Position numbers and translations under genes: made by a program
From: Bacteroidota bacterium
GTDB lineage: Bacteria > Bacteroidota > Rhodothermia > Rhodothermales > UBA10348
DNA: 64,000 bases
Direction: 5' to 3'
Assembly (NCBI GenBank): GCA_022567305.1
Contig: JADFHF010000015.1
Location: 1 to 64,000, forward strand
Part shown: piece after piece, positions 5,853-58,685 of the stretch
How positions within the stretch are numbered: position 1 is the first letter of the stretch
Layout: each line of letters opens with the position of its first letter
Notes under the pieces: generated by a model
The model's input: only the letters and a program-made list of their open reading frames with translations
The model's database searches: none
What the model was told of the DNA's origin: nothing

Positions 5853-5987
5853 TAATTGAGCTTGGCACTTCCTTTCGTGATCGGAAATACCGGTGCTGCA
5901 TTGAATTGCTGGTTAGTACGTGAGCTTTGCTAATTGTGATTGTTGTCCGAACAGCGTTTCTTTCAGCCGAATCCACCCGGAATCGTC

Positions 5988-6149: not shown

Positions 6150-6198
6150 CAGATCGCATGGTATGCACGTGATACGAAGACCGTTAGACTGCTAAAGC

Positions 6199-6929: not shown

Positions 6930-7072
6930 CCAATAAATAATTAGGTTTTACGTACTAGGGCGTGTTGAAGGGAACTACCCCGACCGGCGAGGTGGAAGCT
7001 TATCGCCAGACCGTTAGGCCATGCTCCATCGATCATGAAATGGATTAAAACGCAAATTCACCACGAACCAAG

Positions 7073-7561: not shown

Positions 7562-7660
7562 TACATTTGGCATAACGTGGCACTCCAGTGGACGCTCCCA
7601 TCGTTGCGGCTTGCGCCCAGCTCCTGTGCCGGGCACAGCGTAAGGGTCTTCCGTTACGAC

Positions 7661-42354: not shown

Positions 42355-43343
42355 GTTGCTTCCTTTACTGTTACTTCCTTCACAGGTCCGTTCTCCACAG
42401 TTGCAGTCTCTATAGTCGCCTTCTCTACGTTCGCGACCCCCACAACGGTCGCTGTTCGTTTAGATTTTCCCAGAAGATTGCATAATTCTAGAGCGGTGGC
42501 TCGAAGAGCACCTGCAGCAGGTCGATCCGGGTACATGGTCAAATACGGATTTCCACTGTCGGTTTCCTCGCCGAGTCTGGGGTCGAATGGTATTCTTCCA
42601 AGTAGCTGCACACCGTCCTCGCTCAGCAATTCGTTTGAACCGGGATCCTGAAACAGGTGATGAACGGTGTCACACGCGTCACAGACAAATTCCGTCATGT
42701 TCTCCACCAGCCCGATGGGTCGGTCGTCCACGTGACGCCGCGCAAGCAAAATCGATTTTCGGACCACATAGGTTGAAGCTCTCGAAGGCACACTGACGAC
42801 GACTGCACATGACAGTGTAGGAACCAGGTCCAGCAGATTGGGAAGTCGGTCTGTTCCGGGGGGCAAGTCTACGAGGAGAATGTCCAGACCATCCCAGACG
42901 GTATCCGCTAGCATTTCTCTTATGGCAGCTACTTCAACCATACCGCGCCACGTGAATGCGCTGCGCTGCGTTTCCGCTTCCCATTCTACCGGAATACCCT
43001 CCTTCAGAAACAAGTCGATCGACATGACCTGGACTCCACCATGCGATACGGAAGGAGCAATTCCATCGTCGGTCCGCTCAGGGTTTCGGGCAACGCCGGT
43101 CATTTTTACGACTGACGCTCCATTGATATCCGCATCAACGATGCCTACTCGCCAACCGGTCTCGGTAAGTGCGGTCGCCAGGTTCACCGTCAACAAACTT
43201 TTCCCAACGCCACCTTTTCCACTCATCACCGCGACCACATAGTCAATCTGATCCAGACGGTGGCGCAGTTTCCGTTCCTGTTCCTGGACCTGCCCCGCGA
43301 CGTTGGAGCCACCGTCAGTAAGAATGTCGTGATAGGTCTTCAA
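42351..43343 (-). CDS. apbC: Mrp/NBP35-family ATPase (Fe-S cluster carrier, ApbC-like)
   Basis: 330 aa with deviant Walker A VMSGKGGVGKS and a C-terminal Cys pair CDACD. Confidence 0.75.
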   Translation of the reverse strand: MKTYHDILTDGGSNVAGQVQEQERKLRHRLDQIDYVVAVMSGKGGVGKSLLTVNLATALTETGWRVGIVDADINGASVVKMTGVARNPERTDDGIAPSVSHGGVQVMSIDLFLKEGIPVEWEAETQRSAFTWRGMVEVAAIREMLADTVWDGLDILLVDLPPGTDRLPNLLDLVPTLSCAVVVSVPSRASTYVVRKSILLARRHVDDRPIGLVENMTEFVCDACDTVHHLFQDPGSNELLSEDGVQLLGRIPFDPRLGEETDSGNPYLTMYPDRPAAGALRATALELCNLLGKSKRTATVVGVANVEKATIETATVENGPVKEVTVKEAT

Positions 43344-43361: not shown

Positions 43362-45305
43362 CTACTCTTGTTTCCCGTTCTTCTTGCCGTTCTGCTTTTT
43401 GATCATGTCCTCCATCACTTTCATGCCCACCTTGATGCCTTCCTCTACGATTTCGAGATCGATCAAATCTGACTTCCTGGATGCGGCACCCGTTTCAATT
43501 CTCTTTTTGGTAGCGGTTCGCATAAATCCCTCCGGGACTCGATTGAGCCGCTCGACTGCGGCCGGCGTCCAGGAATACTTACCGTCTCGAATGTTCTGCG
43601 CTCGGCTCTTTACGTCGGGCTGTGGTCCATCGACGGCGCGCTGACCCAGTTTCCCTCGATCTTCGAGGTTTTCTGTAGCGGCTTCCGTTTTTCCAACCAC
43701 ATCTTCAACCATGTCTTTCGTAATCAGGAATATTTTCCGGACGCGAGCGCGCTTTTCAATCTGTGCCTTTGCTCGACGCCGCTTATATCCGTCCGAAAGA
43801 GTTTTTACCAGCATCCGAGCATCGTCCGTCCATTTGATCTTGACGTTGTCGAAGGCCTTTTCTTCGTGAATGGCGCCTTCCAGCGGCGCGAGTTTCTCAA
43901 TCGCGTCCCGGTCCAACTTCTGGATCTGATCCGGCGGGGCATTACAAACCGTGCATTTAGTGGGCTCGAAGCCGCGCCCAACCCAGCCGCACTTCTGACA
44001 GACATAGACCGACGTGTTCTCCTCTCCGATTTTTTTGGTGGCAAGGTCTTCCGAAATGATACCCATAGCCTTCATCGACGACTTGGGAAGAATGGTCGAA
44101 AGAGCGCCTTCCAAAACAGATGTGGTGATGACGGAGTGTCCACGCTCCATCGCCCATCGATGCACAATGGTGCGGGCAATTCCTTTCGCGAAATCAGGGG
44201 CCTTGTCGAGTATCCGCTGCGCCTCTTCTACCCAGATCATAGATTCCTCAGCCTTGACGTCCACGTCCGGTGAAAATCTCTTGCTCGATAGAAGGACATT
44301 GCAGGGGACCAGGCGAAGCAAATTTTCTGTGTTACTTCCGACGTCCATCGATTCATCGCTATGAACACCGATCCGGCCCATCACGAGCATCCAGGGCCGC
44401 TCGCGCCGGACGTATTCCAGAATTTTCTCAAACGCCTTGCCGTCCAAGAGTGTGATCTTGAGATCGACATCCTCGTCTGCAGCGATACGCCGGGATACTT
44501 CCAGGTGCGACTGGTAGATTTTGGCGAGGCCCGTATCGATGACGTCCTCGTGGAGCTGCTCTTGCTCTTCGAACTTGAATACCTTGGACGCCTTTTCCGT
44601 GAGAACACCCACCAGGCTGTTGAACATCGCGTAATGGAGGTACGGATCGTAAACCGAAATTGCCTCTACCGGTTTATCGAGCGCCTTACCGAGCTTGATG
44701 GCGGATTTCAGTCCTGCGTAGGCTTCCGGGCTTCCGTCGATAGCAACGACAATCCCACCGCCGTCCTTATGCTGAACACCGTTTGAACCGGTCGACAACT
44801 GATCTTCAATCGGCGCCGTATTTTTGATAACGATCGTGTCGGTGCGCGTTCGTCGGACCACCCGCTCGCACACGCTCCCGATCTGGCTATCGCGTACAGC
44901 CCCGAGACCCAGAGCGCCCATGATGACCAGGTCGTAATCGTTACTGTTTATGTCGTCTGCGATGACCTCAAAATTCTTTCCGTCGTACAACTTCGGTTCA
45001 AACTGGAGATTGGCTTCGACCGCCTGCTTATGCATGACCGTCAAGTAAGAATCAGAAATCAGCTCTAGACCCATCGTAATGAGTGAATCATGGATCTTGC
45101 GCTGCTTCTCCATCTCCGCTTCGACCAGGTATTCCTCGGGGAGAGTGAATTCCATCTGCTTGAATCGGTAGTCGTGAAGCCGGGCAGCATAGGCGTGGCT
45201 CCCCACGAGGGTCGCGCCAAACTGGCCCGCTAGATGAACGGCAAGTTCAATGGAGGCTCTGGAGTGGTCAGAATTGTCAACGGGGACAAATATTTTCTCG
45301 TACAT
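43362..45305 (-). CDS. Multidomain protein: two universal-stress-protein (UspA) domains + PCP_red-like domain + rubredoxin-like Zn ribbon + two further PCP_red-like domains
   Basis: 647 aa. The USP-like halves contain IFVPVDNSDHSRASIELAV...VIMGALG and GIVVAIDGSPEA...LVMGRIG. The PCP_red-like segments are WVEEAQRILDKAPDFAKGIARTIVHRWAMERGHSVITTSV, KIKWTDDARMLVKTLSDGYKRRRAKAQIEKRARVRKIFLITKDMVED and KYSWTPAAVERLNRVPEGFMRTATKKRIE. The Zn ribbon is CQKCGW...CTVC. Confidence 0.55.
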   Translation of the reverse strand: MYEKIFVPVDNSDHSRASIELAVHLAGQFGATLVGSHAYAARLHDYRFKQMEFTLPEEYLVEAEMEKQRKIHDSLITMGLELISDSYLTVMHKQAVEANLQFEPKLYDGKNFEVIADDINSNDYDLVIMGALGLGAVRDSQIGSVCERVVRRTRTDTIVIKNTAPIEDQLSTGSNGVQHKDGGGIVVAIDGSPEAYAGLKSAIKLGKALDKPVEAISVYDPYLHYAMFNSLVGVLTEKASKVFKFEEQEQLHEDVIDTGLAKIYQSHLEVSRRIAADEDVDLKITLLDGKAFEKILEYVRRERPWMLVMGRIGVHSDESMDVGSNTENLLRLVPCNVLLSSKRFSPDVDVKAEESMIWVEEAQRILDKAPDFAKGIARTIVHRWAMERGHSVITTSVLEGALSTILPKSSMKAMGIISEDLATKKIGEENTSVYVCQKCGWVGRGFEPTKCTVCNAPPDQIQKLDRDAIEKLAPLEGAIHEEKAFDNVKIKWTDDARMLVKTLSDGYKRRRAKAQIEKRARVRKIFLITKDMVEDVVGKTEAATENLEDRGKLGQRAVDGPQPDVKSRAQNIRDGKYSWTPAAVERLNRVPEGFMRTATKKRIETGAASRKSDLIDLEIVEEGIKVGMKVMEDMIKKQNGKKNGKQE

Positions 45306-46321: not shown

Positions 46322-46615
46322 TTATTCGAGTGACTTGTTCACTAGTTCGTTCTCGATGTCTTCCGGTGCAGCGTCTTCCGGTACATGGTCGTTCAATACA
46401 TGGTCGTTCAGTACATCGTCGCTCGGTACATCGTCGTTCGGTACATCGTCCTCATGCACGATCGCGTCTTCGGGACACACGGCGACGCATTCCTGAAACT
46501 CGCAACAGGTATCATCGATGACATAGATGGGATCTCCCACGCTGATGGCTTCGATCGGACATTCGTCCAGACAGAGTCCGCACGTATTACAGGTATCGAG
46601 GATGACGTAGGCCAT
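46322..46615 (-). CDS. 2x[4Fe-4S] ferredoxin with C-terminal acidic pentapeptide-repeat tail
   Basis: 97 aa with CNTCGLCLDECP and CCEFQECVAVCP. The tail DDVPNDDVPSDDVLNDHVLNDHVPED is encoded by a 15-bp tandem DNA repeat. Confidence 0.7.
   Translation of the reverse strand: MAYVILDTCNTCGLCLDECPIEAISVGDPIYVIDDTCCEFQECVAVCPEDAIVHEDDVPNDDVPSDDVLNDHVLNDHVPEDAAPEDIENELVNKSLE
46378..46455. repeat. 15-bp tandem repeat x about 5 (catggtcgttcaata-like units) inside the ferredoxin gene
   Basis: Units catggtcgttcaata / catggtcgttcagta / catcgtcgctcggta / catcgtcgttcggta / catcgtcctcatgca are visible directly. They stay in frame, encoding a 5-aa period. Confidence 0.6.
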
Positions 46616-46655: not shown

Positions 46656-47462
46656 CTAGGCTTTGTGGTCGATCTGCCCCTTCCCCTCGTTAACGGTGTT
46701 GTCACTCCGCTTTCCCGGATACCGTCTTATCGGTGTTTTATTCTTGAAACCGTTTACCCAGAAGCAATACGCATACGGGTACATGGTCTGGACGACATGA
46801 AACGGTTCGTACTCAAATAGTCTACGCATGGCCCACGCAAATCGATATCTGAGATCTTCTGGAGTTATGATCTCCACGATACAATCCACTTGGTAACTAA
46901 AAAACACGGGCGAGTTGCCTGTCCAGAGAACCGATGCCATCGGATTTTCCTTCAGGTTATTGAAGGTCGTACCCTCAAAAATTTCCAGGAGCGCCAGGCG
47001 TCGCCAGTCAAGGTGATCCGGGTTCGAATAGATTTCTCTCGCCGTATTGACGCGTAACGACCGAGTTTCGTGAACGGCGTGGGGAGGCAGTTTTTCTATT
47101 TCCGAGACCGCGCTCTCAACCAGGTTCAGGTAGTGTTCCAGGTATTCATTGCGAGGCGTAAATCCAATTCCCTTGTTGGCGAGATTGAGGAAGTGTCCGT
47201 CAGCGGACCATGTTCCGACAACCGGCAGGTGGCCGACGTTAAATGCGATATACTCATTTTTTTCGATGGAATCGTATATACTGTGCTTCATATCCAGTTG
47301 CCAGCGAACGAATTCATCGGGGAGCTCCTGGATCTGAAAATCCTGCGATACACCATCCGTATGGACGCTTACCGTGTTTCCATCAATGGTCACGCGATCC
47401 AATAATTCTTGACCGTTGGTGGTTGAAACGTCTGCTGCGACTACGTCGATTGATTCTGCCAT
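46656..47462 (-). CDS. Hypothetical protein
   Basis: 268-aa ORF between the radical SAM and ferredoxin genes. No family was recognised. Confidence 0.35.
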   Translation of the reverse strand: MAESIDVVAADVSTTNGQELLDRVTIDGNTVSVHTDGVSQDFQIQELPDEFVRWQLDMKHSIYDSIEKNEYIAFNVGHLPVVGTWSADGHFLNLANKGIGFTPRNEYLEHYLNLVESAVSEIEKLPPHAVHETRSLRVNTAREIYSNPDHLDWRRLALLEIFEGTTFNNLKENPMASVLWTGNSPVFFSYQVDCIVEIITPEDLRYRFAWAMRRLFEYEPFHVVQTMYPYAYCFWVNGFKNKTPIRRYPGKRSDNTVNEGKGQIDHKA

Positions 47463-47502: not shown

Positions 47503-48756
47503 TTATGATTTGCTCGGTGGTGTTTTGAATAGACTCGCGCCTACCATCTGCCCAAATCCACTTCTTTTACTGCCAGCCATAGCCCGATCCATATCGTCTG
47601 ACGTGATTACTCGGAGGCCATGTCTCGCACCATAGGCCCTCAATCCTTTCTTGACCTTACTGCGGATGAACTCAATGGGGATCCTCTCCATTCGATGGAG
47701 AACGGGATCCGAGAATATAATCTCGGATGATTCGGGAAGCGTAATTTTTCCGGGCTGATACGTACACGCCGGATCTTCGGCCAGGTAATCGCCTTCGGCT
47801 GAAAAGGCTCTACAACGACATCCGCCACAAAGCTCCTTGAACTCACAGGCGCCACAGCGTCCTTTCAAGAGAGACAAATCCCTAAGCTCTGTGAATACGT
47901 GTGACGAATTCCAGATCTGCGTAAACCCTTCGTCGCGCACATTCCCGGCTACCACATCCATATACGGGCACGGCGTTACGTTCCCTTCCGGTGTAATTCG
48001 GCAATATTCTGTGGCTGCCATGCACCCACCACTTTCCAGGCCTCCTTTGCCCATTTCGTAAGAGATCTGCTTAAACTGCGGGGCGCATTTGGCGCGGACG
48101 AGCATGGGCGCATAGTCTTCCTGGGATTCGACCAGTTGCCTCAGGCAATCCTCGGTCTCCTGGGGTGTGAGATCGTTCATTTCAAGCCCCCTTCCCGTGC
48201 GCACCAGGAAGTACAGGTTAAACGACCAGGCATCACGGTCCTTCGCAAATTGGATGAGGTCGCCGATTTCGTCCATATTCTCGCGGGTAACGGTCGACTG
48301 GACCAGCACTTCCATTCCGTGCTCCCTGCAGATCTCGAGGGCGCGAACGGAATACTTCCACGCATCCGGGCCTCCACGGAATGCGTTGTGGGTCTCCGGG
48401 TCGACCGAATCGATACTGATCCCCACTCCCTTGACTCCGCACTCCACCATTTTGGCGGCTACGTGTTCGTTCACGAGTACGCCGTTGGTTCCCATCACGA
48501 CCCAGATGCCTTTCGACGAGGCACATGATGCGATATCGTAAATATCTCGGCGGAGAAGCGGTTCGCCGCCGGTCAGGATCAGCATCTCCGTGCCCAGCGA
48601 ATGCATCTCATCTACCAGGCGAAGACACTCGTCGGTGGTTAGTTCATCCTCAGCGCTGTCTCCGGCATCCAGATAGCAGTGCGGACACGCCAGATTACAT
48701 TTCTTGGTGAGATTCCACGAAACGAGCGAGGGGCGGTATGTCTGCAGCGTTTCGAT
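47503..48756 (-). CDS. Radical SAM / SPASM-domain enzyme with C-terminal PCP_red-like domain; no canonical start codon upstream of the CxxxCxxC motif
   Basis: The ORF-track version starts at ATG 48606 (MHSLGTEMLILTGGEPLL). The same frame stays open 58 codons upstream and contains the radical-SAM cluster motif CNLACPHCY. SPASM Cys motifs read CGACEFKELCGGCRCRA. The C-terminal PVLHRMERIPIEFIRSKVKKGLRAYGARHGLRVITSDDMDRA is PCP_red-like. The only start candidate is ATC, overlapping the upstream gene's TAA (TAATC). Confidence 0.6.
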   Translation of the reverse strand: METLQTYRPSLVSWNLTKKCNLACPHCYLDAGDSAEDELTTDECLRLVDEMHSLGTEMLILTGGEPLLRRDIYDIASCASSKGIWVVMGTNGVLVNEHVAAKMVECGVKGVGISIDSVDPETHNAFRGGPDAWKYSVRALEICREHGMEVLVQSTVTRENMDEIGDLIQFAKDRDAWSFNLYFLVRTGRGLEMNDLTPQETEDCLRQLVESQEDYAPMLVRAKCAPQFKQISYEMGKGGLESGGCMAATEYCRITPEGNVTPCPYMDVVAGNVRDEGFTQIWNSSHVFTELRDLSLLKGRCGACEFKELCGGCRCRAFSAEGDYLAEDPACTYQPGKITLPESSEIIFSDPVLHRMERIPIEFIRSKVKKGLRAYGARHGLRVITSDDMDRAMAGSKRSGFGQMVGASLFKTPPSKS

Positions 48757-50297
48757 TACGCTTCTTCTCCACGCTTGTCGTCAGAAGATGCTCTTGCGCC
48801 ATGAACTTTTTTCCGGGTAACAAACGTGACGACGAGCCCCAGAAGCAGTGTGGCAAATCCGTATGCCATCATGGGTAGGACAGGAGACTCTTTTACGGCA
48901 ACATCCATATACAGGTAAGCCCAACTGGTAAGACCTCGTTTGTTACCTCTTTCTCTGCTGAATCCGTCCCATATCGAAAAGGCGATCGGTACGAACGTTC
49001 CTTCTTCAAAAGCAATGTGGGCCTCCTCATTTCGGGCGCGTCGGAAGATGACCGTCCACTCGCCTTCCTGGAATGACGCCGAGACATCCAGTTCAGGACC
49101 CTCTTCGCTCATATTCGAAGCGCCCTTGCCGACGTAGTGCCTGGCCCCTGATCCAGCAAGATCCGCAAACCAGATGTCTGTACTCAGTTTTCGATCCCCG
49201 AAGATGAAATAGGGCATCTCGGTACCCGCCGAAAGAACGGTCGGAAACTGAATGGCGACGGCATCTGAAAACACCAGCGTTGAGTCCGAATCAGCATCCA
49301 AGGCCCCTGGTGCAATGAGATCGGGTGCATTTGATCCGCTCGTTTCGGCGGCCATGTCGTGCCACTGAAGCATGATGGAGATATGTTCATCGTTGTAAAC
49401 CGCCCGTACGTCGACTCCATTGACTCCTGGGAAGAATGCTCGTCCCGGCTCGATAATCTGTCCTACCACCGGGAAATAGGCCGGCTCGATATCTGCGAAA
49501 GATTCTTGGGAGAGATCCATCGTCCTGGTGGTCGCATGCGCCGTTACCATCGTTGCATAATTTGGCTCGTCCCGAGAGAGAGAATAGACGTAATCGACCA
49601 GCGCCCACTGATCTTCCGTCGGTGAGATTTCGAATGACGGCATGGGTGAGCCGTCGAGTCCAGTCGTAAAGGTCTGGTAAATATCCTCACGGGTTCCTCC
49701 CCCCCGGAATGTCCAGCGCTTCGTCATGTCAGCTGCCCGGATTGGATACCCCCACCGATCTTCCAGCGTGGGCGCAGATGGCCCGTCTCCCAGCCCCCGG
49801 TTTCCGTGGCAGTCAGAACATTGATTCGTTTCGTACACCTCGCGTCCACGGGCTATGGATTCATCCGTCATTGAAGGCGGACTAGGCATTTCGAGCGCGG
49901 TGACCTCTCCAAACGGGCCCGAAAAATCAGATGAAAACGTTTTGATGTGGTACATCAGATTGGTCACATCCGCATTCGAGAGCGACGGCCACGGCGGCAT
50001 GGCCGTATATGGCATGCCGTTCCGAATGCTGTTCCTGATATCCTCATCGGTTGGCAGTTCCCCACTGGCGGTCGTCCGAAACTTAAACGTACCGGTCGTG
50101 AAGTTTCGTGGGGCAGGACGAAAGACAGAGGCAACTGTCGGGCGAGGCACACCGTCTGACCCATGGCAATGGGCACATTTTGCTTCGTAAACGACCCGTC
50201 CCGCTTCACGTTGCTCGTCGGTTCCCAGATCGACATTCTGCGCAGCGACGCTGAAAACCGGAATAACCAAGGCCATCATGCAAGCCAGAATTCTCAT
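48756..50297 (-). CDS. Membrane-anchored dihaem c-type cytochrome (CcoP-like tandem class-I domains) with a 250-aa extra domain and C-terminal TM
   Basis: 513 aa with signal peptide, CAHCHG and CSDCHG haem motifs, and the TAMPPWP motif. A C-terminal hydrophobic helix reads LPMMAYGFATLLLGLVVTFV. Confidence 0.65.
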   Translation of the reverse strand: MRILACMMALVIPVFSVAAQNVDLGTDEQREAGRVVYEAKCAHCHGSDGVPRPTVASVFRPAPRNFTTGTFKFRTTASGELPTDEDIRNSIRNGMPYTAMPPWPSLSNADVTNLMYHIKTFSSDFSGPFGEVTALEMPSPPSMTDESIARGREVYETNQCSDCHGNRGLGDGPSAPTLEDRWGYPIRAADMTKRWTFRGGGTREDIYQTFTTGLDGSPMPSFEISPTEDQWALVDYVYSLSRDEPNYATMVTAHATTRTMDLSQESFADIEPAYFPVVGQIIEPGRAFFPGVNGVDVRAVYNDEHISIMLQWHDMAAETSGSNAPDLIAPGALDADSDSTLVFSDAVAIQFPTVLSAGTEMPYFIFGDRKLSTDIWFADLAGSGARHYVGKGASNMSEEGPELDVSASFQEGEWTVIFRRARNEEAHIAFEEGTFVPIAFSIWDGFSRERGNKRGLTSWAYLYMDVAVKESPVLPMMAYGFATLLLGLVVTFVTRKKVHGARASSDDKRGEEA

Positions 50298-51106
50298 TCG
50301 TGTACCTCCTTCGCCCTTGGCCTCTGATCCGTGAAGTCGTACATAAACAAAATGACATCCCAGATATCTTCCTCAGAGAGAAATGTCTCCCAGGCCGGCA
50401 TGGCCGACGACCACGGAGTGGACTCTACAGGAAGCCCGGGGGCTCCCTTCGCAATTCGCCAAAACAGGTACGACTCCTGGAGCATCGCAATGGTGGTCGG
50501 ATCCTGGAAATTGGCCGGAATGGGGTTAAAGCCGCGTGCAAACAGGCCGTCGCCTACCATATTGTCGCCGTGACATTTTACACAGTTCTGGTAGTACACG
50601 AGTCGACCGTTGCTCACATGTTCGGCAAACGCAGTCGGATCACTCGTTTCCAACTCTCGATACGGGTTGTCCTCATCAACCAGGTCGACCTGCCGGCCCT
50701 TAAATGTGATCGTAGCCGGTGGCGGCGGGTGGATCGTGCGTCCGACGACCGGCGGATCCGGCAGCTGAGTCAGGTTCTGATACACGCGAAATGCCACGAT
50801 AAACGGCAGGCCAATCAGGGCGACTACGAGCGGAATCGTATACTTTTTGTCCGTAAAAAAGCTGACGAAAGCGTTGGATACTTCCTTCAGACGATCTTCG
50901 GTCGTTGTCAGATAGACCGCCAACGACAACGTAATAATGAACATAAACATCGTCAGGACCGAGGCGGGAACGGGCGGAACGACACCGTATCTCAAGAAAA
51001 CGTAGACGGCTACCCACGTCGCAGACGACCAGGCCAGCGAGTTGGGTTTCAGAAATCGGAGGGCGATCAGTCCTGCGGCGATCGCCAGAAGTACGACGAT
51101 ATTCAC
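50294..51106 (-). CDS. Monohaem c-type cytochrome with N-terminal 3-4 TM anchor
   Basis: 270 aa with CVKCHG and a C-terminal class-I cytochrome c fold (SSAMPAWETFLSEEDIWDVILFMYD). Confidence 0.6.
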   Translation of the reverse strand: MNIVVLLAIAAGLIALRFLKPNSLAWSSATWVAVYVFLRYGVVPPVPASVLTMFMFIITLSLAVYLTTTEDRLKEVSNAFVSFFTDKKYTIPLVVALIGLPFIVAFRVYQNLTQLPDPPVVGRTIHPPPPATITFKGRQVDLVDEDNPYRELETSDPTAFAEHVSNGRLVYYQNCVKCHGDNMVGDGLFARGFNPIPANFQDPTTIAMLQESYLFWRIAKGAPGLPVESTPWSSAMPAWETFLSEEDIWDVILFMYDFTDQRPRAKEVHE

Positions 51107-51916
51107 CTAGTTACCCTGTTGATCTGCGAGATAGTTGACGAGCGCCCGAAGCTCCTCAGGAGACACCTTTTGATAGAATCCGAGGGCATTTAACGTGGTC
51201 AGCATGACACCGCCCGGAAATCCTTCTGCCAGTGTAGCATCGGGCTCCATCACCGCCTCATAGATTTCCGCCTTGGAAAGCCTGGATCCAACGTCAAATA
51301 AACTGGGACCCACCAATGGGTCGGGTGAATCTATGGAGTGGCACGTGTTACACAAGTACGTCGTAAAAACGCCCGGCCCGTCTAGACCGGCGCCGAGGGT
51401 AGCTCCTCCGGAAGGAGCCGGAGCAATCGCTGAGACTTCAGTTACGTATCCCACATCGGTGGCGAGCGTCACGGAAGGCGTCCCTCCCAGGCTTTGGAGG
51501 TAGGCGATGACTGCTTTGATCTCGTCGTCAGTCAATCCAATAGGAGGCCGGTTTATGGCCGGCATTCCCGCAAGAAAGCCATCCACAATGAACTCATTGG
51601 GCTCATAAAGAGAGTGAGCCAGGTATTCCAACGCTGACATCCCGGCAATTCGGGTCGAGGCTTTGGTAGCGATTCCTCCCAGGTCTGGGAAGCGAAGGCC
51701 CGAATCTCGTGATCCTACCGTATGGCATCCGAGGCAAGTACCTTTCCCCGCGACAATGTCCGCTCCGGCAATCGCGAGTTCATCAGGCGTCATGTCCGCA
51801 GAGAGGTCTGCGGACTCAGGTGGATACGTAATTTTCTGAGGTACGGTATTGCCTACATAGCTGTAAAAAGCCAGCACGACGATCACGAATCCGAATATTT
51901 TCAATGAAGATTTCAT
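51107..51916 (-). CDS. Dihaem c-type cytochrome, N-terminal TM anchor
   Basis: 269 aa with CLGCHT and CNTCHS. Confidence 0.6.
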   Translation of the reverse strand: MKSSLKIFGFVIVVLAFYSYVGNTVPQKITYPPESADLSADMTPDELAIAGADIVAGKGTCLGCHTVGSRDSGLRFPDLGGIATKASTRIAGMSALEYLAHSLYEPNEFIVDGFLAGMPAINRPPIGLTDDEIKAVIAYLQSLGGTPSVTLATDVGYVTEVSAIAPAPSGGATLGAGLDGPGVFTTYLCNTCHSIDSPDPLVGPSLFDVGSRLSKAEIYEAVMEPDATLAEGFPGGVMLTTLNALGFYQKVSPEELRALVNYLADQQGN

Positions 51917-53811
51917 TCGGGTGCCTCCACTGCTCGTTCGGTACCAACTGATTCTGCAGATCTTACTGCATCAACCGCTTTCGGCTCCCACGGCTTTTTG
52001 CCGGACAATCCGGACAGCCAGAAGACAATCGAAATGAATAAGAAAAAAATTAGTACGGTTACTGAAATCACATTTGATGCAAACCCGAGCGTGGGAGTGA
52101 ACGCATCGGGCGACGTGTCCTGCAAGACGCCGAACACATGCCAGTGCTGCCGCATACCGGCTCTCACGTAGCCCATCAGGCCCATGGTCCAGGCAAACGT
52201 CAGGGCAATGAAAAACAACGCGTATTGGGCTCGATCGGGCATCTGACCCCATTTGATCTCACCCGTCTTCTTGGCGTTTTTGAACATGAAAATGTCAATC
52301 GCGGTGACGGATATCATGGCCGTCAGCACCGCCAACACCTGCGGAACGGAGAGTGCGATCCTCACGCGTGCCTCCACGAAGTATCCGTACACACCGAGGA
52401 AAATGACGAAGAGAATCGTTACTGCGAAGATGGCAAACTGAACACGGTTTCCCGTTTTTGCCCACGGAACGATCGCTTCCTTATTTCCGCGTCTATATAA
52501 AAGGAAGCTGATGTAGGTCGTCAATATCATCACGTTCACGGCCGTATTCTTGGCCGACATGACCCCCAGCACACCCAGCATCGGGTGGTGGGCGCCGCCC
52601 ATCTGACGTGCTTCTTCGACCGTGGCCACCAGCGAATGCGGGGTCGCCCACACGATGAACGTGATCGTAACGGATGCCAGCAAGTATTTAATGAAGCGCC
52701 GGAATCGCTCGGCCCCTTCAATGCGCTCCATACTGACCCAGAGATAGTAATTCGCCGCGAGAAAGAGATTCCCGATCAGAATCGCCTGGATGATAAACAG
52801 CCAGGAAAACGTCCCACCCATGAGCGTGATGCCCAGACTTTGAGAGTAGGCATAGATTTCCTTCCCTAAATAATACCCGGCGAACGGGAGCGGGAGAAGC
52901 GCACTGATCGCAATAAAGTTGCCGATGTAGCCCATCCAGTCATAATGCGCTTTCTCTTCCTCTGTCTTGGCTCCGAGGAACTTGTAGGCGCCGTAGGCCG
53001 CAGCAATCGAACCACCGAACGCCATATTGGCGATGAGGCGGTGGATATTGATGGGCATCCAGATGAAATTGTTGATGGCATCCGGCAGGCTAACGAGCGC
53101 CCCCGTCTCCGAAATTCCATTCGGTGTGTTCATAAACGTCAGCCATGCATCCGCGATGAACATGATTGCCGTTCCAACAATGTTCAGACAGACCCCCAGG
53201 GCTAGGTGAACCTTCGGAGAGAATTTTCCCCATCCGTAGTAGTAGCTGTACAGGAACAACGCCTCTAGGAAAAAGAGAAATACATACGGGAAAAAGGTCC
53301 AGCTGAATATCGAGACCATGTAGGTGGCCACACGCGGATAGAGAATGAAGAGCATAAACGTCAACATCGCTCCAAGCGTCGCCGTAAAGGAGAACGAAAC
53401 GGAGAGGAGTTTCGTGAATTCGTACGCCAGATCGTCATAACGCTTGTCTTTCGTCACGTACCCGATGATTTCGATAATCAGTGCGAACATCGGGACGGCA
53501 AGAACAAACGCGGCAAACATCAGGTGCAGCTGGGCAACCACCCACATGGCTACGCGACTACCGACGATAGGGAACGGCCGATAGTCGGGATTGGCCGCAT
53601 CCTGAAGGGCTTCCTGCGGAGACGCCCCGGCGGGGAGAGCAAGGATACCAACGATCGCCACGGCCAACAGAATCGCGGCGCAGATGGGCAGATAGCATAG
53701 GCGGAACGGATGCCGATTTCGGGGCCGCAGCTCCGTGGGTTCCCACGGACGTTCATTGACGGAACTTGACTTCCAGGGGTTGAAAAGCTTGCGGAGCCGG
53801 GTCTCGGGCAT
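51913..53811 (-). CDS. Cytochrome bd ubiquinol oxidase subunit I (CydA) homolog, standalone (no cydB)
   Basis: 632 aa, polytopic. VAQLHLMFAAF...FTKLL..SFSFTATLGAML and FLEALFLYSYYYGWGKFSPKVHLALGVCLNIVGTAIMFIADAWLTFMNTP align with the E. coli CydA helices (AMYHFLF..., [50 protein letters not shown]). The Q-loop-like motif reads RAGMRQHWHVFG. Confidence 0.55.
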   Translation of the reverse strand: MPETRLRKLFNPWKSSSVNERPWEPTELRPRNRHPFRLCYLPICAAILLAVAIVGILALPAGASPQEALQDAANPDYRPFPIVGSRVAMWVVAQLHLMFAAFVLAVPMFALIIEIIGYVTKDKRYDDLAYEFTKLLSVSFSFTATLGAMLTFMLFILYPRVATYMVSIFSWTFFPYVFLFFLEALFLYSYYYGWGKFSPKVHLALGVCLNIVGTAIMFIADAWLTFMNTPNGISETGALVSLPDAINNFIWMPINIHRLIANMAFGGSIAAAYGAYKFLGAKTEEEKAHYDWMGYIGNFIAISALLPLPFAGYYLGKEIYAYSQSLGITLMGGTFSWLFIIQAILIGNLFLAANYYLWVSMERIEGAERFRRFIKYLLASVTITFIVWATPHSLVATVEEARQMGGAHHPMLGVLGVMSAKNTAVNVMILTTYISFLLYRRGNKEAIVPWAKTGNRVQFAIFAVTILFVIFLGVYGYFVEARVRIALSVPQVLAVLTAMISVTAIDIFMFKNAKKTGEIKWGQMPDRAQYALFFIALTFAWTMGLMGYVRAGMRQHWHVFGVLQDTSPDAFTPTLGFASNVISVTVLIFFLFISIVFWLSGLSGKKPWEPKAVDAVRSAESVGTERAVEAPE

Positions 53812-53813
53812 GT

Positions 53814-54575
53814 TTAGAAGTCTAGTTCAGACATATCCTGGAGCCATGTTTCCAATTCGTCTGGCGACTCGACCGTCACAAAGCCGCGCATTCGATAATG
53901 GCTAAGACCGCACAACTGCGCGCATGCGATTTCGTATTCACCTGCTTTGATTGCCGTAAACCAAATCGGGATGGCGATGCCCGGAACAACATCCTGTTTG
54001 ATTCGAAGCTGCGGTACACCAAAACTATGAATGACATCCTTGGATGTCAGTGTGATTACGATCGGTCTATTGATCGGAAGGTGCAATTCATTAATCGTTA
54101 CGACGTCGTCGGCCGATGCCGGATCGTCTGGGTCCAATCCGATTGGATTGGATAGAACATCGATAAGATGAATATCCCGCGCCCCAAACGTACCATCGGC
54201 GCCCGGATAATGGACGTTCCATGCAAACTGTTCAGCGATGACGTTGACCTCAAAAGACTCTTCTGCAGACGGAAACTCATTCTTGAGCACACCCCAGATC
54301 GGAAACGCAAATCCAACAAGCAAGACCGCCTCCGCCAGAATGACAGCGGTCTCTTGAACCTTCGAGTATTTGCCGACTGCCCCTTCGTAACTCGCAACAG
54401 GATTTTTCTTCGTCCGGAATCGGATCAGAACATAGATGAAATACACCCCCCAACCCACTAAAAGAAGGAGCATAAGCAAGTGAACCAGCGACATCATGTA
54501 ATCAATGTCTCCCGCATGCGCAGATGCCTGTTCCGGAAGACCCAAGGAACCACTGATATCAAGAAATTCTCTCAT
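53814..54575 (-). CDS. coxB: Cytochrome c oxidase subunit II (CuA)
   Basis: 253 aa with two TM helices, then INELHLPINRPIV...DVIHSFGVPQLRIKQDVVPG...CAQLCGLSHYRM (CuA ligands H, C, C, H, M). Confidence 0.8.
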   Translation of the reverse strand: MREFLDISGSLGLPEQASAHAGDIDYMMSLVHLLMLLLLVGWGVYFIYVLIRFRTKKNPVASYEGAVGKYSKVQETAVILAEAVLLVGFAFPIWGVLKNEFPSAEESFEVNVIAEQFAWNVHYPGADGTFGARDIHLIDVLSNPIGLDPDDPASADDVVTINELHLPINRPIVITLTSKDVIHSFGVPQLRIKQDVVPGIAIPIWFTAIKAGEYEIACAQLCGLSHYRMRGFVTVESPDELETWLQDMSELDF

Positions 54576-54594: not shown

Positions 54595-54861
54595 TCATGC
54601 AGTCGTAGTGTCCGAAGATTCCCGCTCATCTTCTGCGATGGATCGAGAGCGATTGTGCGCCTGGTTGAAAAATGAAATAATGCCGGTGAATACGACACCG
54701 ATCATAGCCAGAAGTGCAAGCATAGAGATTCCAATCGCAGTGACGATCGGTGAATCCAACCCGGCTCCAAAACACCGTTCACATGCCAGGGTTACTTCTG
54801 GAAGAATCATCCATGCACCGACAAGTGCACTCGTTGACGCTATGTATCGCAGTGTTTTCAT
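54595..54861 (-). CDS. Small membrane protein (88 aa)
   Basis: Two predicted TM helices. It sits inside the cox cluster at tight spacing. Confidence 0.35.
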   Translation of the reverse strand: MKTLRYIASTSALVGAWMILPEVTLACERCFGAGLDSPIVTAIGISMLALLAMIGVVFTGIISFFNQAHNRSRSIAEDERESSDTTTA

Positions 54862-54865
54862 ATTC

Positions 54866-55063
54866 TCAAGTGGATCCGAGATGTTTCATTTTCTTCAGAA
54901 AACGCATCCCGTAAACGATTAAAAGGATTCCAGCCAACAGAGCCGCCAGTGTCCAAACGAATCGCATGGCGCCATCAACTTCCAAAAACGCATACACGCC
55001 CATTCCGAACGTCAATAGTGTGGAGACGGTGATGAATGCGATATGGAAGGCCTTAAGAGACAA
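54866..55063 (-). CDS. Small membrane protein (65 aa)
   Basis: Two predicted TM helices. It overlaps the coxD stop. Confidence 0.35.
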   Translation of the reverse strand: MSLKAFHIAFITVSTLLTFGMGVYAFLEVDGAMRFVWTLAALLAGILLIVYGMRFLKKMKHLGST

Positions 55064-55370
55064 GGTAGCCCCCCTCTTGGGAATTGTGCGCCCAGATGAA
55101 CAGCGTCAACATAATGAACAGGAAAACGGCCGAAGCAATCAATAGCCAGAAAATCAGCTTTTTCTCGGTGATCAGATGCATGAAATAGCTGCCCACCAGA
55201 CCACCCTTGACGCAGGCGATAAACAAAGCCACGATCATCGCCGGAACGATCGGCAACTTTAGATATCCCACCGACACCGTCACGATCGTTAATACCGCAA
55301 GCGATCCAAACACCATCATGTAAACACGAACGTGTTTACGAATTTCTTCGGGACTGTGTAATTCAGCCAT
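55053..55370 (-). CDS. Cytochrome c oxidase subunit IV (bacterial caa3-type CoxD)
   Basis: 105 aa with three TM helices. It lies immediately downstream of coxC, as in aa3/caa3 operons. Confidence 0.5.
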   Translation of the reverse strand: MAELHSPEEIRKHVRVYMMVFGSLAVLTIVTVSVGYLKLPIVPAMIVALFIACVKGGLVGSYFMHLITEKKLIFWLLIASAVFLFIMLTLFIWAHNSQEGGYLVS

Positions 55371-55373: not shown

Positions 55374-55991
55374 CTAAAGCAGGTAGATGGTCGGGAAGAG
55401 AAAAATCCAAACGATGTCGACGAAGTGCCAATACAGACCCGCGACCTCAATGCGGTTAGTGAAGTACTTGGGATTGGTTTTCCAGAGTTTAGTGCCCGGA
55501 CCCAGAAAATACGAGTTTATGATAATCCCACCGATCACGTGCACGGCATGAAGACCCGTCAGGACAAAATAGATCCCCAGAAAGTTGGACTCACTCGGAA
55601 ACAACCCGTGCGAGAATTTAGACGTGTATTCGATACCTTTGATGATCAGAAAGCCAAACGCTAGCAAGATCGTCGCGCCCATAAACAGGCGGTACTTGTC
55701 GAAACGATTCATCATCAGAGACGCCCAGGCCATAACGATCGTAACGCTCGATCCAATCAGAATGAACGTATTCAGCGTTGCGAGGGGTACGCTCAGCACT
55801 TCCGACGCCCGCCCGTACATATGGCCGGCCATCATGCCCGGCCACTCGGGCGCGCCAATTCGCAGAAAAATGTACGCGGAGAAAAGACCTCCGAACAACA
55901 TGATCTCGGACGCCAAAAAGAGCCAAATTCCTAATTTGGCGTTATTCACACCGGTATCGGGTCTCGCTTCTACGGTATACGGTATATCCAT
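55374..55991 (-). CDS. coxC: Cytochrome c oxidase subunit III
   Basis: 205 aa with the C-terminal HFVDIVWIFLFPTIYLL signature. Confidence 0.8.
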   Translation of the reverse strand: MDIPYTVEARPDTGVNNAKLGIWLFLASEIMLFGGLFSAYIFLRIGAPEWPGMMAGHMYGRASEVLSVPLATLNTFILIGSSVTIVMAWASLMMNRFDKYRLFMGATILLAFGFLIIKGIEYTSKFSHGLFPSESNFLGIYFVLTGLHAVHVIGGIIINSYFLGPGTKLWKTNPKYFTNRIEVAGLYWHFVDIVWIFLFPTIYLL

Positions 55992-56003: not shown

Positions 56004-57791
56004 TTACGGCTGGTTCTGTGGCGTGAAATCGGAATCGGAATCAGGTACGCTGTACTCGTACGGGCCCCGATAAACGGTCGGAACCGTTTCAAAATTTACA
56101 TGCGGAAGAGGAGGCGTGGGTGTGGCTGTCCACTCCAGTGTCGTGGCTTTCCACGGATTATCGTCCACTTCTTTCCCCTTCTTGATACTCAGGAAGAAGT
56201 TGATGAAAAACGGTATCTGAGCGAGAGCGAGCACCCACGCAAATATCGACATGAGTTCGTTGTACTGCACCACGTTCGCCGCGAAATCATACGTGGCTCC
56301 ACCGTCATAGAGACGACGGGAGACACCCGCCAGACCCTGAATGAACATCGGCATAAAGATGCCATTCATGCAGATGAACGTCCCCCAGAAGTGAATCCGA
56401 CCCCAAAAATCGTTGAGCTTTCGCCCGGTGACTTTCGGATACCAATAGTAGATGCCAGCGAAAAGGGCCAATATGGTTCCCGGAGCCACGATATAGTGAA
56501 AGTGCCCGATCACGTACATGGTATCATGCAGAGGAATATCCGTTGGCGCCAGGCCGAGTGGAAGGCCTGTAAGCCCTCCGATTCCAAACATGGGGAGGAA
56601 CGCCAAAGCGAACAACATCGGGGTCGTAAATCGCATCGATGCCCCCCACAGTGAAAGGAACAATCCCGAAAGAATGATGACTGACGGAATGGATATGATC
56701 ATCGTGGTCACCTGGAAGAAAGCTCCCATAGTCGTTCCCATTCCCGTGATGAACATGTGGTGGGCCCATACGATGAATGACATCGCTCCCAGGAAAAGGA
56801 GTGAATAGACCATCAACTTATATCCCCAGAGCGGTTTCCTCGTATTGTTCGCGATGATCTCGGCTACAATTCCCATTGCCGGAAGGATCAGAACGTAGAC
56901 TTCGGGGTGGGCGAGGAACCAGAATAAATGCTGCCACAAGAGCGGACTCCCCCCGCCAGCAATATCCAAAACCTGGCCACTCACGACGAGTCCGCTGGGC
57001 ATAAAGAAACTGGTCCCTATCAATCGGTCAGCGAGCTGAAGAAATGCGGCCGCCTCAAGCGGAGGAAAGGCCAGGAGTAGCAGAAAAGCCGTTACGAACT
57101 GCGCCCAGACAAAGAACGGCATCCTGAAATAGCTCATCCCGGGAGCTCGAAGCTGAATGATCGTCGTCAGAAAGTTCACCGCGCCGAGCAGGGACGATGT
57201 GATCAGGAACATCATGCCGATGAGCCACATAGTTTGGCCCATGGTCTCTATGTTGGCAAGGGGTGGATAGGATGTCCATCCCGCTTTGGCCGCGCCTGCC
57301 GGTACGAAGAAACTCGCCAGCATCACCACGCCGCCACAGAAATACACCCAATAGCTCGCCATGTTGAGCTTGGGAAACGCCATATCGGGCGCACCGATCT
57401 GAAGCGGAACGATGTAATTACCGAAAGCACCCACCGCAAGCGGAACCACACCCAGGAAGACCATAATGGTCCCGTGCATGGCACCGAGCTGATTGTAGAA
57501 CTCCGGCACCATCACTCCACCCGGCATGGTATCATCACTGAACAACCATCCGATCAGGGGTATCGGTTGGCCGGGATACGCCAGCTGCCACCTCATTAGC
57601 ATCATAAACGTGAAGCCAGTGAGTAAAAAAAACAGCGCCGTTAGGGCGTACTGGATGCCGATCATCTTGTGATCGGTCGCGAAGATGTATTTCCGCCAGA
57701 AAGGCTCTTCGTGATAACGATGAACGTCGTGAACCGACTCGTCGCCTCCACTAACAGAGTCGGTCATTTCGCGTTCAGTGCCGTAGGTCAT
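56004..57791 (-). CDS. coxA: Cytochrome c oxidase subunit I (heme-copper oxidase catalytic subunit)
   Basis: 595 aa with WAHHMF, HFHYIV and GGxTG motifs and 12+ TM helices. Confidence 0.9.
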   Translation of the reverse strand: MTYGTEREMTDSVSGGDESVHDVHRYHEEPFWRKYIFATDHKMIGIQYALTALFFLLTGFTFMMLMRWQLAYPGQPIPLIGWLFSDDTMPGGVMVPEFYNQLGAMHGTIMVFLGVVPLAVGAFGNYIVPLQIGAPDMAFPKLNMASYWVYFCGGVVMLASFFVPAGAAKAGWTSYPPLANIETMGQTMWLIGMMFLITSSLLGAVNFLTTIIQLRAPGMSYFRMPFFVWAQFVTAFLLLLAFPPLEAAAFLQLADRLIGTSFFMPSGLVVSGQVLDIAGGGSPLLWQHLFWFLAHPEVYVLILPAMGIVAEIIANNTRKPLWGYKLMVYSLLFLGAMSFIVWAHHMFITGMGTTMGAFFQVTTMIISIPSVIILSGLFLSLWGASMRFTTPMLFALAFLPMFGIGGLTGLPLGLAPTDIPLHDTMYVIGHFHYIVAPGTILALFAGIYYWYPKVTGRKLNDFWGRIHFWGTFICMNGIFMPMFIQGLAGVSRRLYDGGATYDFAANVVQYNELMSIFAWVLALAQIPFFINFFLSIKKGKEVDDNPWKATTLEWTATPTPPLPHVNFETVPTVYRGPYEYSVPDSDSDFTPQNQP

Positions 57792-57929: not shown

Positions 57930-58685
57930 CTATGAACCGAAAGAAAAGTCAACGGATACGGCTTCACCGTCTGTTACCGTGACCGTCTCTGTCGCAGTGC
58001 CGTACTTCTCGTGCCAGGCCTCAAATACGTACTCGCCAGCCGGCAGTTGGCCGATGGAAAAGCTTCCGGTATCGTCCGATACGGAATGGAACGGGTGATC
58101 AACAACTCCTGCATAGGCATTCATCCAGGCATGGACATCGCACTTAATCCGGAGCATTAATTCGGGTACACGGAAGGATCGCTCCCGTTCGTCGCCTTGA
58201 TTGGGCATCCCCATATTGAAAGGACGATTCTCGTTTGCGAGAGCATTGACGTTGTGCATCAAGGGATCACCATTGATAATTTTCAATGTCTGTCCGACCT
58301 GGATACCGAAAACGTGCGGTGTATAGACGCAGCCATCTTGATTAAAGACGACCGGTTCCGAGGGAATAGCGAAACTGTAATCGCCCAACCCTTCTTTTAC
58401 ATAAACGAATACATTGCGAAGGGTCCCATTATCATTCACAACAACTGACTCGTTCAGTACGGGATCGGCATTTAGTTCGGCACACTCTCGATCTTGACGA
58501 ATCCGATTCCTATCCGGCGCGGTGCCCGTAAAAGAAATCGAACCGGAAACGCTAGCCGATCCGAGCGGGGTCGTATCAGCGGTAGCAGCAGGTTCCGAAG
58601 ATGAATCCGAGCTGTCTGAACTGGAATCACCACCACAAGCTGAAAAGAGTAGAACAGCTGTTAGTAGAGTTAGAAATAAACGCAT
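57930..58685 (-). CDS. Cupredoxin-like (amicyanin/pseudoazurin-type) lipoprotein, first gene of the array
   Basis: The start is taken at MRLFLTLLTAVLLFSACGG (the ORF-track N-extension looks spurious). It has a Ser/Asp-rich linker, then YTPHVFGIQ...KCDVHAWMNAY. C-x2-H-x2-M plus an upstream His matches amicyanin CTPHPFM-type type-1 Cu ligands. Confidence 0.45.
   Translation of the reverse strand: MRLFLTLLTAVLLFSACGGDSSSDSSDSSSEPAATADTTPLGSASVSGSISFTGTAPDRNRIRQDRECAELNADPVLNESVVVNDNGTLRNVFVYVKEGLGDYSFAIPSEPVVFNQDGCVYTPHVFGIQVGQTLKIINGDPLMHNVNALANENRPFNMGMPNQGDERERSFRVPELMLRIKCDVHAWMNAYAGVVDHPFHSVSDDTGSFSIGQLPAGEYVFEAWHEKYGTATETVTVTDGEAVSVDFSFGS

Follow-up and report, generated by a model that had tools for sequence, protein, structure and literature searches.

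A CydA-like protein of the OR-N2 family encoded between haem-copper oxidase and c-type cytochrome genes in a Rhodothermales bacterium: a candidate cytochrome c-fed bd-like complex

What does a homologue of CydA, subunit I of cytochrome bd, do between the genes of a haem-copper oxidase and those of three c-type cytochromes? This question is raised by a DNA stretch of 64,000 nucleotides (positions 1 to 64,000 of contig JADFHF010000015.1; below, the window) from a Bacteroidota bacterium of the Rhodothermales, in which an open reading frame (ORF) of 632 amino acids at 51913..53811 encodes the CydA-like protein, here called N2. All window genes given with coordinates below lie on the reverse (-) strand. 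An earlier note on this DNA had described the position of the ORF between coxB and three c-type cytochrome genes, and this arrangement was borne out, with two, one and two CxxCH motifs in the three cytochromes. The translational coupling that it had pointed to on both sides was likewise found: the TAA stop codon of coxB is followed by two nucleotides (ac) and then by the ATG of N2, and the stop codon of N2 overlaps the start codon of the dihaem cytochrome gene c1 by four nucleotides (ATGA). The claimed absence of cydB from the window also held, as none of the large ORFs tested matched Pfam Cyt_bd_oxida_II. Taken as a whole, the locus is best explained by N2 being the haem-binding membrane subunit of a cytochrome c-fed 'cytochrome bd-like' complex of the OR-N2 family that likely reduces O2, a reading to which we give a probability of roughly 0.55.

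The similarity of N2 to CydA in sequence is confined to an N-terminal core. The Pfam model Cyt_bd_oxida_I (PF01654) matched with an E-value of 3.4e-24 over residues 85-322 only, which correspond to profile positions 2-240 of 418, and none of the NCBIfam models matched N2. A phmmer comparison with the CydA chains in the PDB retrieved 9r2g_A (2.5e-14), 5doq_A (5.5e-13) and 6rko_A (2e-3), with the alignment spanning residues ~80-320. These alignments pair His96 of N2 with His19 of Escherichia coli CydA, Tyr176 with Glu99 (Glu101 in Geobacillus), Glu183 with Glu107, His202 with His126 and His257 with His186. Both the hidden Markov model and the phmmer alignments stop at about residue 320 and do not reach the helices that bear Met393 and Glu445. 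The alignment across the haem-binding helices reported in the earlier note is therefore upheld for the N-terminal core and does not extend to the helices of Met393 and Glu445. The outcome for the haem ligands, whose conservation the same note had proposed as a check, was mixed: His19 and His186 are kept, Glu99 is replaced by Tyr, and for Met393 there is a presumed equivalent, Met418, which was assigned from a literature table and the topology without a significant alignment.

An AlphaFold2 model of N2, based on a multiple-sequence alignment of 37 diverse relatives, reached a predicted local distance difference test score (pLDDT) of 84.9 and a predicted template-modelling score of 0.83. It consists of 14 helices, namely an N-terminal anchor helix (residues 36-57) and 13 transmembrane helices. 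A Q-loop-like segment had been proposed from the sequence, and this was wrong: there is no Q-loop in the model, where its place is taken by extra transmembrane helices and the long helices are joined by links of 2-4 residues. Neither the PDB alignments nor the model revealed recognisable quinol-site residues, and N2 contains no CxxCH motif. When the model was compared with the PDB by Foldseek, CydA chains ranked first (E-values of 2e-9 to 4e-6, target template-modelling scores of 0.5-0.68) and CydB chains ranked far behind them. We know of no solved structure of an OR-N-type protein.

Conservation was assessed in 117 aligned relatives of N2. His96 is conserved in 98%, Tyr176 in 97%, Glu183 in 93%, His202 in 99% and His257 in 98% of the sequences, and the best-conserved part of the protein is the four-helix bundle. 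N2 keeps this CydA bundle, in which His96 takes the place of the active-site haem ligand His19 and the site of the proton channel is lined by Glu183, His202 and Tyr176. The His186 ligand of haem b558 is retained as His257, and Met418 (93%), located at the periplasmic end of a helix, is the candidate sixth ligand. Trp557 and His558 are conserved in 93% and 96% of the relatives, respectively. Position 551, the equivalent of Glu445, is Ala in N2, and in the family it is Ser in 82 and Ala in 29 of the 117 sequences. Further conserved residues are found in periplasmic loops (His409, His558, Glu400, Lys421 and Asp565); that the strongly conserved stretches 389-417 and 553-574 form periplasmic loops is predicted from the positive-inside rule and the order of helices in the model.

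These features identify a family that has already been named. Murali, Gennis & Hemp 2021 (bioRxiv 10.1101/2021.01.16.426971) introduced OR-N2 as a subfamily of the cytochrome bd superfamily, and their Supplementary Table 6 describes a reference with 14 transmembrane helices and the residues H99, Y183, E190, H213, H269, M430/N434, S563 (S/A) and W569. N2 matches every one of these entries with consistent spacing (H96, Y176, E183, H202, H257, M418/N422, A551 and W557), where M418/N422 stand for M393 and W557 for W441 of E. coli CydA. The supplement of the same work gives multiple cytochromes c and an EbdC homologue as the typical content of OR-N2 operons, and its main text states that OR-N2 often occurs without another CydA-like protein. 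Bd-like oxidases with 14 transmembrane helices that lack the Q-loop and quinol residues had been described by Lücker et al. 2013 (PMC3578206). In Candidatus Manganitrophus, Yu et al. (10.1101/2021.11.15.468770) defined the terminal oxidase TO_1 as a bd-like protein with two cytochromes c and a periplasmic cytochrome b, expressed in the 98th percentile, and NIDE0901 of Nitrospira has been equated with OR-N2 (PMC12342949). A Nitrospira/Manganitrophaceae protein (P0144/P0271) is 39% identical to N2 over its full length and has the Tyr/Glu signature in common with it; the Nitrospirota homologue P0271 is a lone gene beside a NuoF-like gene, a context that lends no support to a shared operon.

The assignment of N2 to OR-N2 is secure. 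As its residues, operon content and 14 helices are those published for this family, it belongs to a named family and is not an undescribed type. The earlier note had suggested a distinct and undescribed terminal oxidase or electron-transfer subunit; the first half of this suggestion stands, N2 being a distinct CydA homologue that lacks CydB and is linked to c-type cytochromes, and the second half fell to the published description of OR-N2. Its premise that bd oxidases do not normally interact with c-type cytochromes does not hold across the family, to which OR-C and OR-N form exceptions already on record. The N2 module is distinct from a canonical bd oxidase, yet it is not a new enzyme class. 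Relatives of N2 are numerous, with more than 7600 database sequences at E<=1e-5, 226 representatives of 50%-identity clusters at E<1e-30 and at least 578 matching stretches in GTDB species-representative genomes that encode one. The nearest ones (75-86% identical) come from Rhodothermales and other Bacteroidota, Calditrichia, KSB1, Latescibacteria, Gemmatimonadota and Fibrobacteres, and the cultured thermophile Rhodocaloribacter litoris is among the genomes that carry N2. Databases label relatives of N2 'cytochrome ubiquinol oxidase subunit I'.

The presumed partners of N2 are encoded directly downstream. The first, c1 (51107..51916; Pfam Cytochrom_C), is a membrane-anchored dihaem cytochrome c with an N-terminal hydrophobic helix and CxxCH motifs at residues 61 and 189. 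It is followed without a gap by c2 (50294..51106; Pfam Cytochrome_CBB3), a monohaem cytochrome c with CxxCH at residue 175 behind three N-terminal transmembrane-like segments (1-22, 40-69 and 87-112). The third gene, c3EB (48756..50297), overlaps c2 by four nucleotides and encodes a signal peptide, a dihaem cytochrome c part, an EbdC/NxrC-like EB_dh domain and a C-terminal transmembrane anchor (two matches to Pfam Cytochrom_C, one to EB_dh; TIGR03477). Its dihaem half matches the dihaem redox partner from Kuenenia (PDB 6h5l_B, E-value 1.5e-48). Together the motifs of c1 (two), c2 (one) and c3EB (two) account for five haems c. The haem b ligands of EbdC, Met108 and Lys201, are not conserved in c3EB, where they align to Phe366 and Arg454/Lys453. 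Across the c3EB family the position of Met108 is occupied by Phe in 59 and by Met in five sequences, that of Lys201 is mostly Arg, and position 453 is Arg or Lys, within a domain that spans about residues 343-456. Since c3EB lacks the Met/Lys pair of EbdC, a haem b in this domain is doubtful and none was counted.

To survey the conservation of this arrangement, the proteins of the window were used as queries against every ORF in 88 related loci (phmmer, stop-to-stop ORFs). Counts refer to species-level genomes and only to loci with enough flanking sequence, so that denominators vary (80, 75, 68, 56, 54 and 50); the 80 surveyed loci are those most similar to the window (64-86% identity) and were not drawn at random from OR-N2. 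Downstream of N2, c1 was found in 77 of the 80 loci, c2 in 75 of 75 and c3EB in 68 of 68, and the order N2-c1-c2-c3EB extends over Rhodothermales, Calditrichia, Fibrobacteria, Acidobacteriota, Myxococcota and Gemmatimonadota. Because related loci keep N2 together with the three cytochrome genes, N2 is not a canonical cydA displaced from its cydB; such a displacement had been named in the earlier note as a possible refutation. Gene fusions were also detected. In P0121 c1 is fused to the C-terminus of N2 (36% identity, E-value 4e-41), and P0119 and P0120 carry a cytochrome c domain at the N-terminus of N2, with a shortened monohaem c1 as the next gene. These N2::c1 and cytochrome c::N2 fusions support the existence of a physical complex.

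A gene for CydB was not encountered. The window ORFs of at least 200 amino acids with at least four transmembrane-like segments are N2, CoxA, CoxC, two FtsX permeases, DoxX and one ORF of 255 amino acids. Among the related loci, no CydB gene was present in those inspected with precomputed Pfam gene calls, a check that did not extend to all 80 loci.

Upstream of N2 lie the genes of an aa3-type oxidase. An A-family haem-copper oxidase subunit I is encoded by coxA (56004..57791; Pfam COX1, E-value 1e-134; TIGR02891, 578 bits), the translation of which contains the HPEVY motif. Subunits III and IV are encoded by coxC (55374..55991; Pfam COX3) and coxD (55053..55370; Pfam COX4_pro and TIGR02229), and subunit II by coxB (53814..54575; Pfam COX2 and TIGR02866 CoxB, E-value 1e-41). 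CoxB contains the CuA motif CAQLCGLSHYRM and is not fused to a cytochrome c domain. The interval between coxD and coxB contains orf88 (54595..54861), a small protein of 88 amino acids with a single transmembrane segment and without a match in the family search, which is kept at the same position in L011, L017 and L019. Scans for sigma-70 promoters and terminators gave matches at chance level only.

Direct adjacency of coxB and N2 is limited to close relatives of the window (L010, L011, L012, L017 and L019), and cox genes were found inside the 10-kb flanks of N2 in 20 of the 80 loci. Six Rhodothermales loci and one Acidobacteriota locus display the order alternative complex III (ACIII), SCO, coxBAC(D) and N2, with ActD, ActE and ActF as the detected ACIII genes; five of the six Rhodothermales examples come from chromosomes or contigs of several megabases. 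The N2 module of L093 is oriented divergently to a run of genes in the order radical-SAM, Usp/PCP_red, Mrp, PCP_red, DUF420, coxB, coxA, ctaB, coxC and coxD. A further observation is an in-frame fusion of CoxD to the N-terminus of N2, directly after coxC, in L092 (735-2822, P0086); this single case comes from one 3.4-kb metagenome contig and could be an assembly or sequencing artefact.

A second type of neighbourhood involves ACIII-like genes. In 23 of the 56 loci with enough upstream sequence, mostly from Acidobacteriota and some from Myxococcota, a multihaem ActA-like gene, a gene for an ActB-like iron-sulphur protein of ~1000 amino acids and a monohaem cytochrome c gene directly precede N2 (for example L031, L035, L038, L045, L053, L057, L060, L063, L065, L072, L078, L083 and L088). 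The locus L088 illustrates this order, with the ActA-like gene at 5461-6132, the ActB-like gene at 5970-9233, the cytochrome c gene at 9230-9823 and N2 from ~10001. NrfD-type ActC or ActF was not found in these loci. Such a gene set would be an ACIII-like peripheral arm with the CydA-like protein as its only large membrane partner. Neither cox nor Act genes were detected upstream of N2 in 22 of the 56 loci. Both the wider linkage of N2 to cox genes and the ActA/ActB-like module upstream seem to be less well documented, as does the conserved gene set downstream that is described below. A Gemmatimonadaceae genome (L005 and L006, 2061-9863) has a different set directly upstream of N2, consisting of a molybdopterin enzyme of 1183 amino acids, an iron-sulphur subunit with four clusters, a chaperone similar to NarJ and another protein of the cytochrome c/EB_dh type; it is of the nitrite oxidoreductase (NXR)/Nar type and resembles the arrangement in Nitrospina and Nitrospira.

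Combining these observations, a four-subunit complex of N2, c1, c2 and c3EB can be proposed, in which electrons would enter on the periplasmic side at the level of cytochrome c (or of a cupredoxin) and would run through the five c-haems to the His257/Met418 haem and on to the His96 haem. O2 would be reduced at the His96 haem, and protons would arrive via Glu183, His202 and the Tyr residues of the four-helix bundle. In the window genome the N2 module would be co-transcribed with the aa3-type haem-copper oxidase and provide a second, copper-free terminal oxidase. Since CoxB lacks a built-in cytochrome c domain, the aa3 oxidase and N2 probably share their cytochrome c donors. Electron transfer from cytochrome c to O2 is most likely the reaction of the N2 complex, judging from the conservation of the bundle and from publications on the physiology of Nitrospirota: most Nitrospirales have no haem-copper oxidases, and a putative bd-like oxidase, NIDE0901 of N. 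defluvii, is thought to be their main cytochrome c terminal oxidase (PMC10579370). The high expression of TO_1 in Manganitrophus and the seven ACIII-cox-N2 loci, which place N2 at the usual site of an oxygen reductase, support the same role.

Several points weigh against a cytochrome c-fed oxygen reductase. As both Glu99 and Glu445 are replaced, the di-haem active site may have been lost. Purification of an OR-N enzyme has not been achieved, and papers of 2024-2025 (including PMC12342949) call these proteins uncharacterised. A bd-like gene of unspecified subfamily lies in the NXR cluster of the strictly anaerobic anammox bacterium Kuenenia (PMC3578206). The 'periplasmic cytochrome b' assumed for such complexes may not exist here, to judge from the substituted ligands of c3EB. 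The loci in which ActA/ActB-like genes precede N2 and an NrfD-type quinol subunit is missing suggest that N2 itself may handle quinone. Finally, the genes downstream of the module, described below, would be connected with haem only through family and fold resemblance.

The chief rival is a quinone-interacting role similar to that of ACIII, in which quinol would be oxidised at the His257 haem and electrons would pass via the c-type cytochromes to CuA of the aa3 oxidase, and which might operate in reverse in nitrite oxidisers. This idea was raised for bd-like proteins by Lücker et al. 2013 (PMC3578206), and it would fit the coupling of N2 to a coxB gene without a cytochrome c domain, the cox genes near N2 in a quarter of the loci, the position of N2 at the place of the quinol subunit behind ActA/ActB and cytochrome c, and the loss of Glu445 and Glu99. 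N2 has, however, neither a Q-loop nor recognisable quinol-site residues, and the bundle that is best conserved in it houses the O2 site and the proton channel of bd oxidases and not their quinol site. A second quinol:cytochrome c module would moreover be redundant in the seven loci that have a complete ACIII upstream of cox and N2, 22 of the 56 loci have neither cox nor Act genes upstream, and the Nitrospirales without haem-copper oxidases would still need an oxidase. On balance this role appears rather unlikely.

A still weaker case can be made for N2 as a haem-rich membrane hub that serves other periplasmic redox reactions, such as nitric oxide/nitrite chemistry or the acceptance of electrons from molybdoenzymes of the NXR/EbdABC type. 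The EbdC/NxrC-like domain of c3EB points in this direction, as do the Nar/Nxr-like molybdoenzyme and NarJ chaperone directly upstream in the Gemmatimonadota loci L005 and L006, an NnrS gene that adjoins the module in L007 and the clustering of NXR and bd-like genes in Nitrospina, Nitrospira and Kuenenia (PMC3578206). Most loci, including the window, lack a nearby molybdoenzyme, however; the usual neighbours are genes of aerobic respiration (cox, ACIII and SCO), and the haem ligands of the EB_dh domain are not conserved. That N2 is instead a canonical cytochrome bd subunit I with cydB and cydX elsewhere in the genome, as the 'ubiquinol oxidase' annotation of its relatives and the inspection of only 64 kb of the source genome might allow, is effectively refuted by the Pfam match to just 240 of 418 profile positions, the 14 helices without a Q-loop, the replaced Glu99 and Glu445, the c-type cytochrome partners in every locus with enough flank, and the lack of CydB in loci with Pfam gene calls and of any CydB-like polytopic ORF in the window.

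With the cytochrome c-fed OR-N2 complex as the preferred reading, the module can be compared with known systems. It agrees with other OR-N2 members (NIDE0901 and TO_1) in the 14 transmembrane helices, the missing Q-loop, the diagnostic residues and the lack of a haem c motif in the subunit, as well as in an operon with several cytochromes c, an EbdC-like subunit and no second CydA-like gene. It differs from them in its occurrence in a Rhodothermales-like bacterium of the Bacteroidota, in the translational coupling to coxB inside an aa3 operon, and in its EbdC-like domain, which is joined to a dihaem cytochrome c in one protein and lacks the Met and Lys ligands of haem b. Compared with OR-N2 as published, a conserved radical-SAM/PCP_red/Mrp set follows the module that is not mentioned there. 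Canonical CydAB(X) (qOR1-3; PDB 6RKO, 5DOQ and 7OSE) has in common with N2 the fold of the N-terminal four-helix bundle and the fifth transmembrane helix, including equivalents of His19, His186, Glu107 and His126. In contrast to it, N2 has no CydB, CydX, Q-loop or quinol-site residues, possesses five extra transmembrane helices and c-type cytochrome partners, and has Tyr in place of Glu99 and, in the family, Ala or Ser in place of the haem b595 ligand Glu445.

Among the other systems, OR-C, a CydA with fused C-terminal haem c domains in Desulfobacterota and Acidobacteriota, likewise has no quinol site, and cytochrome c is its presumed electron donor. Its subunit I has eight transmembrane helices and contains CxxCH, and it is paired with OR-C1b, whereas N2 has 14 helices, no CxxCH and no paralogue. 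OR-N1 is distinguished by Gly at the position of Glu107, where N2 has Glu183, and by an operon with petA, petB and petD; the family search of the operon ORFs revealed no Rieske or cytochrome b genes with N2. The ACIII-caa3 clusters and supercomplex of Rhodothermus marinus and Flavobacterium johnsoniae resemble the locus in that the genes of a respiratory module lie together with those of a haem-copper oxidase and in the same orientation, and ActE-like and ActA/ActB-like genes stand beside N2 in many relatives. Unlike the cofactor-less NrfD-type membrane subunits of ACIII, N2 is a haem protein of the CydA fold, and the window contains no Act genes.

The genes that follow c3EB form a second conserved block. 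Its first member (47503..48756) is a radical-SAM/SPASM enzyme of the NirJ/AhbD clade, which matches TIGR04055 and TIGR04545 over the full length of these models and has a weak C-terminal PCP_red match. The CxxxCxxC motif of this enzyme (CNLACPHC) is located upstream of the first ATG (48606-48783), and no ATG, GTG or TTG is present between the preceding stop codon and the motif. The start is likely an ATC codon at 48756-48754, which has one base in common with the TAA stop codon of c3EB, or a CTG at 48747. With the extended start, the protein scored 340 bits against NirJ2 (TIGR04055) and 312 bits against AhbD (TIGR04545); both scores fall below the equivalog cut-off of 500, so that it is regarded as a paralogue within this tetrapyrrole-modifying clade.

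The next gene, hyp268 (46656..47462), encodes a conserved protein without a Pfam or NCBIfam match, and all of its 440 homologues are annotated as 'hypothetical'. Its AlphaFold2 model (pLDDT 77) adopts the split-barrel fold that binds flavin mononucleotide, coenzyme F420 or haem, and Foldseek retrieved Rv1155, HupZ, alr5027, HutZ and HugZ with weak E-values (>=2e-3); these best hits comprise F420/FMN-binding proteins and proteins that bind or degrade haem, HupZ, HutZ, HugZ and alr5027 among the latter. In L005 and L007, hyp268 and the Usp/PCP_red protein form a single polypeptide. A small 4Fe-4S ferredoxin (46322..46615; Pfam Fer4 and NF058577) is followed by hyp198 (45721-46317) and hyp125 (45342-45719), both without a family match and syntenic in Rhodothermales and Calditrichia loci. 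The Usp/PCP_red protein itself (43362..45305; Pfam Usp and PCP_red) is composed of Usp domains in tandem, a zinc ribbon and a pair of PCP_red domains; its more than 5500 homologues carry the annotation 'universal stress protein' only. The block continues with a P-loop ATPase of the Mrp/NBP35 type (42351..43343; Pfam ParA (NUBPL)), for which the Fe-S carrier MrpORP (NF041136) was the best model with 214 bits, below its cut-off, and with a small Cys-rich PCP_red protein (41785..42354; Pfam PCP_red, E-value 2.7e-12).

The 10 kb that follow N2 contain the Usp/PCP_red gene in 52 of 56, the radical-SAM gene in 42 of 56 and the Mrp gene in 35 of 54 loci, and the small PCP_red gene follows N2 in 29 of 50. 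The set is retained also where cox genes are not nearby. Pfam describes PCP_red as the domain at the C-terminus of BchB, a subunit of protochlorophyllide reductase. Three independent hints of tetrapyrrole handling thus come from the radical-SAM family, PCP_red and the split barrel, and the simplest reading of the downstream block is a putative dedicated haem (tetrapyrrole) maturation system for the N2 complex. No description of this gene set was found in the literature, and a search for PF08369/PCP_red gave nothing relevant.

Two bolder proposals build on these neighbourhoods and are offered tentatively, as neither seems probable at present. In the first, N2 would be part of a composite respiratory machine instead of a free-standing second oxidase, either joined to the A-family oxidase or, in Acidobacteriota, together with ActA/ActB, forming a membrane arm that replaces the NrfD-type subunits. 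N2 and the oxidase could be joined physically, as indicated by the coupling to coxB, the cox genes near a quarter of the N2 loci and the one CoxD::N2 fusion. In the second, the NirJ/AhbD-like radical-SAM enzyme, the PCP_red proteins and the split-barrel protein might tailor a tetrapyrrole that serves as the catalytic haem of N2; if so, these genes would define a pathway to a special haem for an oxidase.

In Nitrospira, Nitrospina and Manganitrophus, 'bd-like' proteins of the OR-N type are presumed to act as the main terminal oxidases. The four-subunit N2 module is common in heterotrophic phyla, and heterotrophic hosts such as R. litoris would provide much easier sources for biochemistry and cryo-electron microscopy than the slow-growing nitrifiers. 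Concrete hypotheses on partners and cofactor maturation arise from its conserved neighbours, namely the haem-copper oxidase genes, the module resembling ActA/ActB and the putative set for haem tailoring. The value of the locus lies in conserved partners and tractable hosts and not in a new enzyme class.

Two further genes at the edges of the region encode potential redox proteins. The head of the operon is formed by a lipoprotein gene (57930..58685; Pfam CarboxypepD_reg), the product of which has a cupredoxin-like H..C..H..M motif, in the form of a His...Cys-x2-His-x2-Met pattern, ahead of the CarboxypepD_reg domain. It aligns weakly (E-value 0.075) with the blue-copper (type-1) protein 5fc9_A, and in this alignment the ligand positions coincide. 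Other loci, including those of other phyla, likewise have homologues next to N2 or cox genes, and the lipoprotein could be a cupredoxin electron carrier. At the other end, just past the small PCP_red gene, a protein of 726 amino acids (39047-41227) combines a multihaem cytochrome c region with C-terminal tetratricopeptide repeats, and its cytochrome region gave weak matches to decahaem proteins of the DmsE/GSU2203 type.

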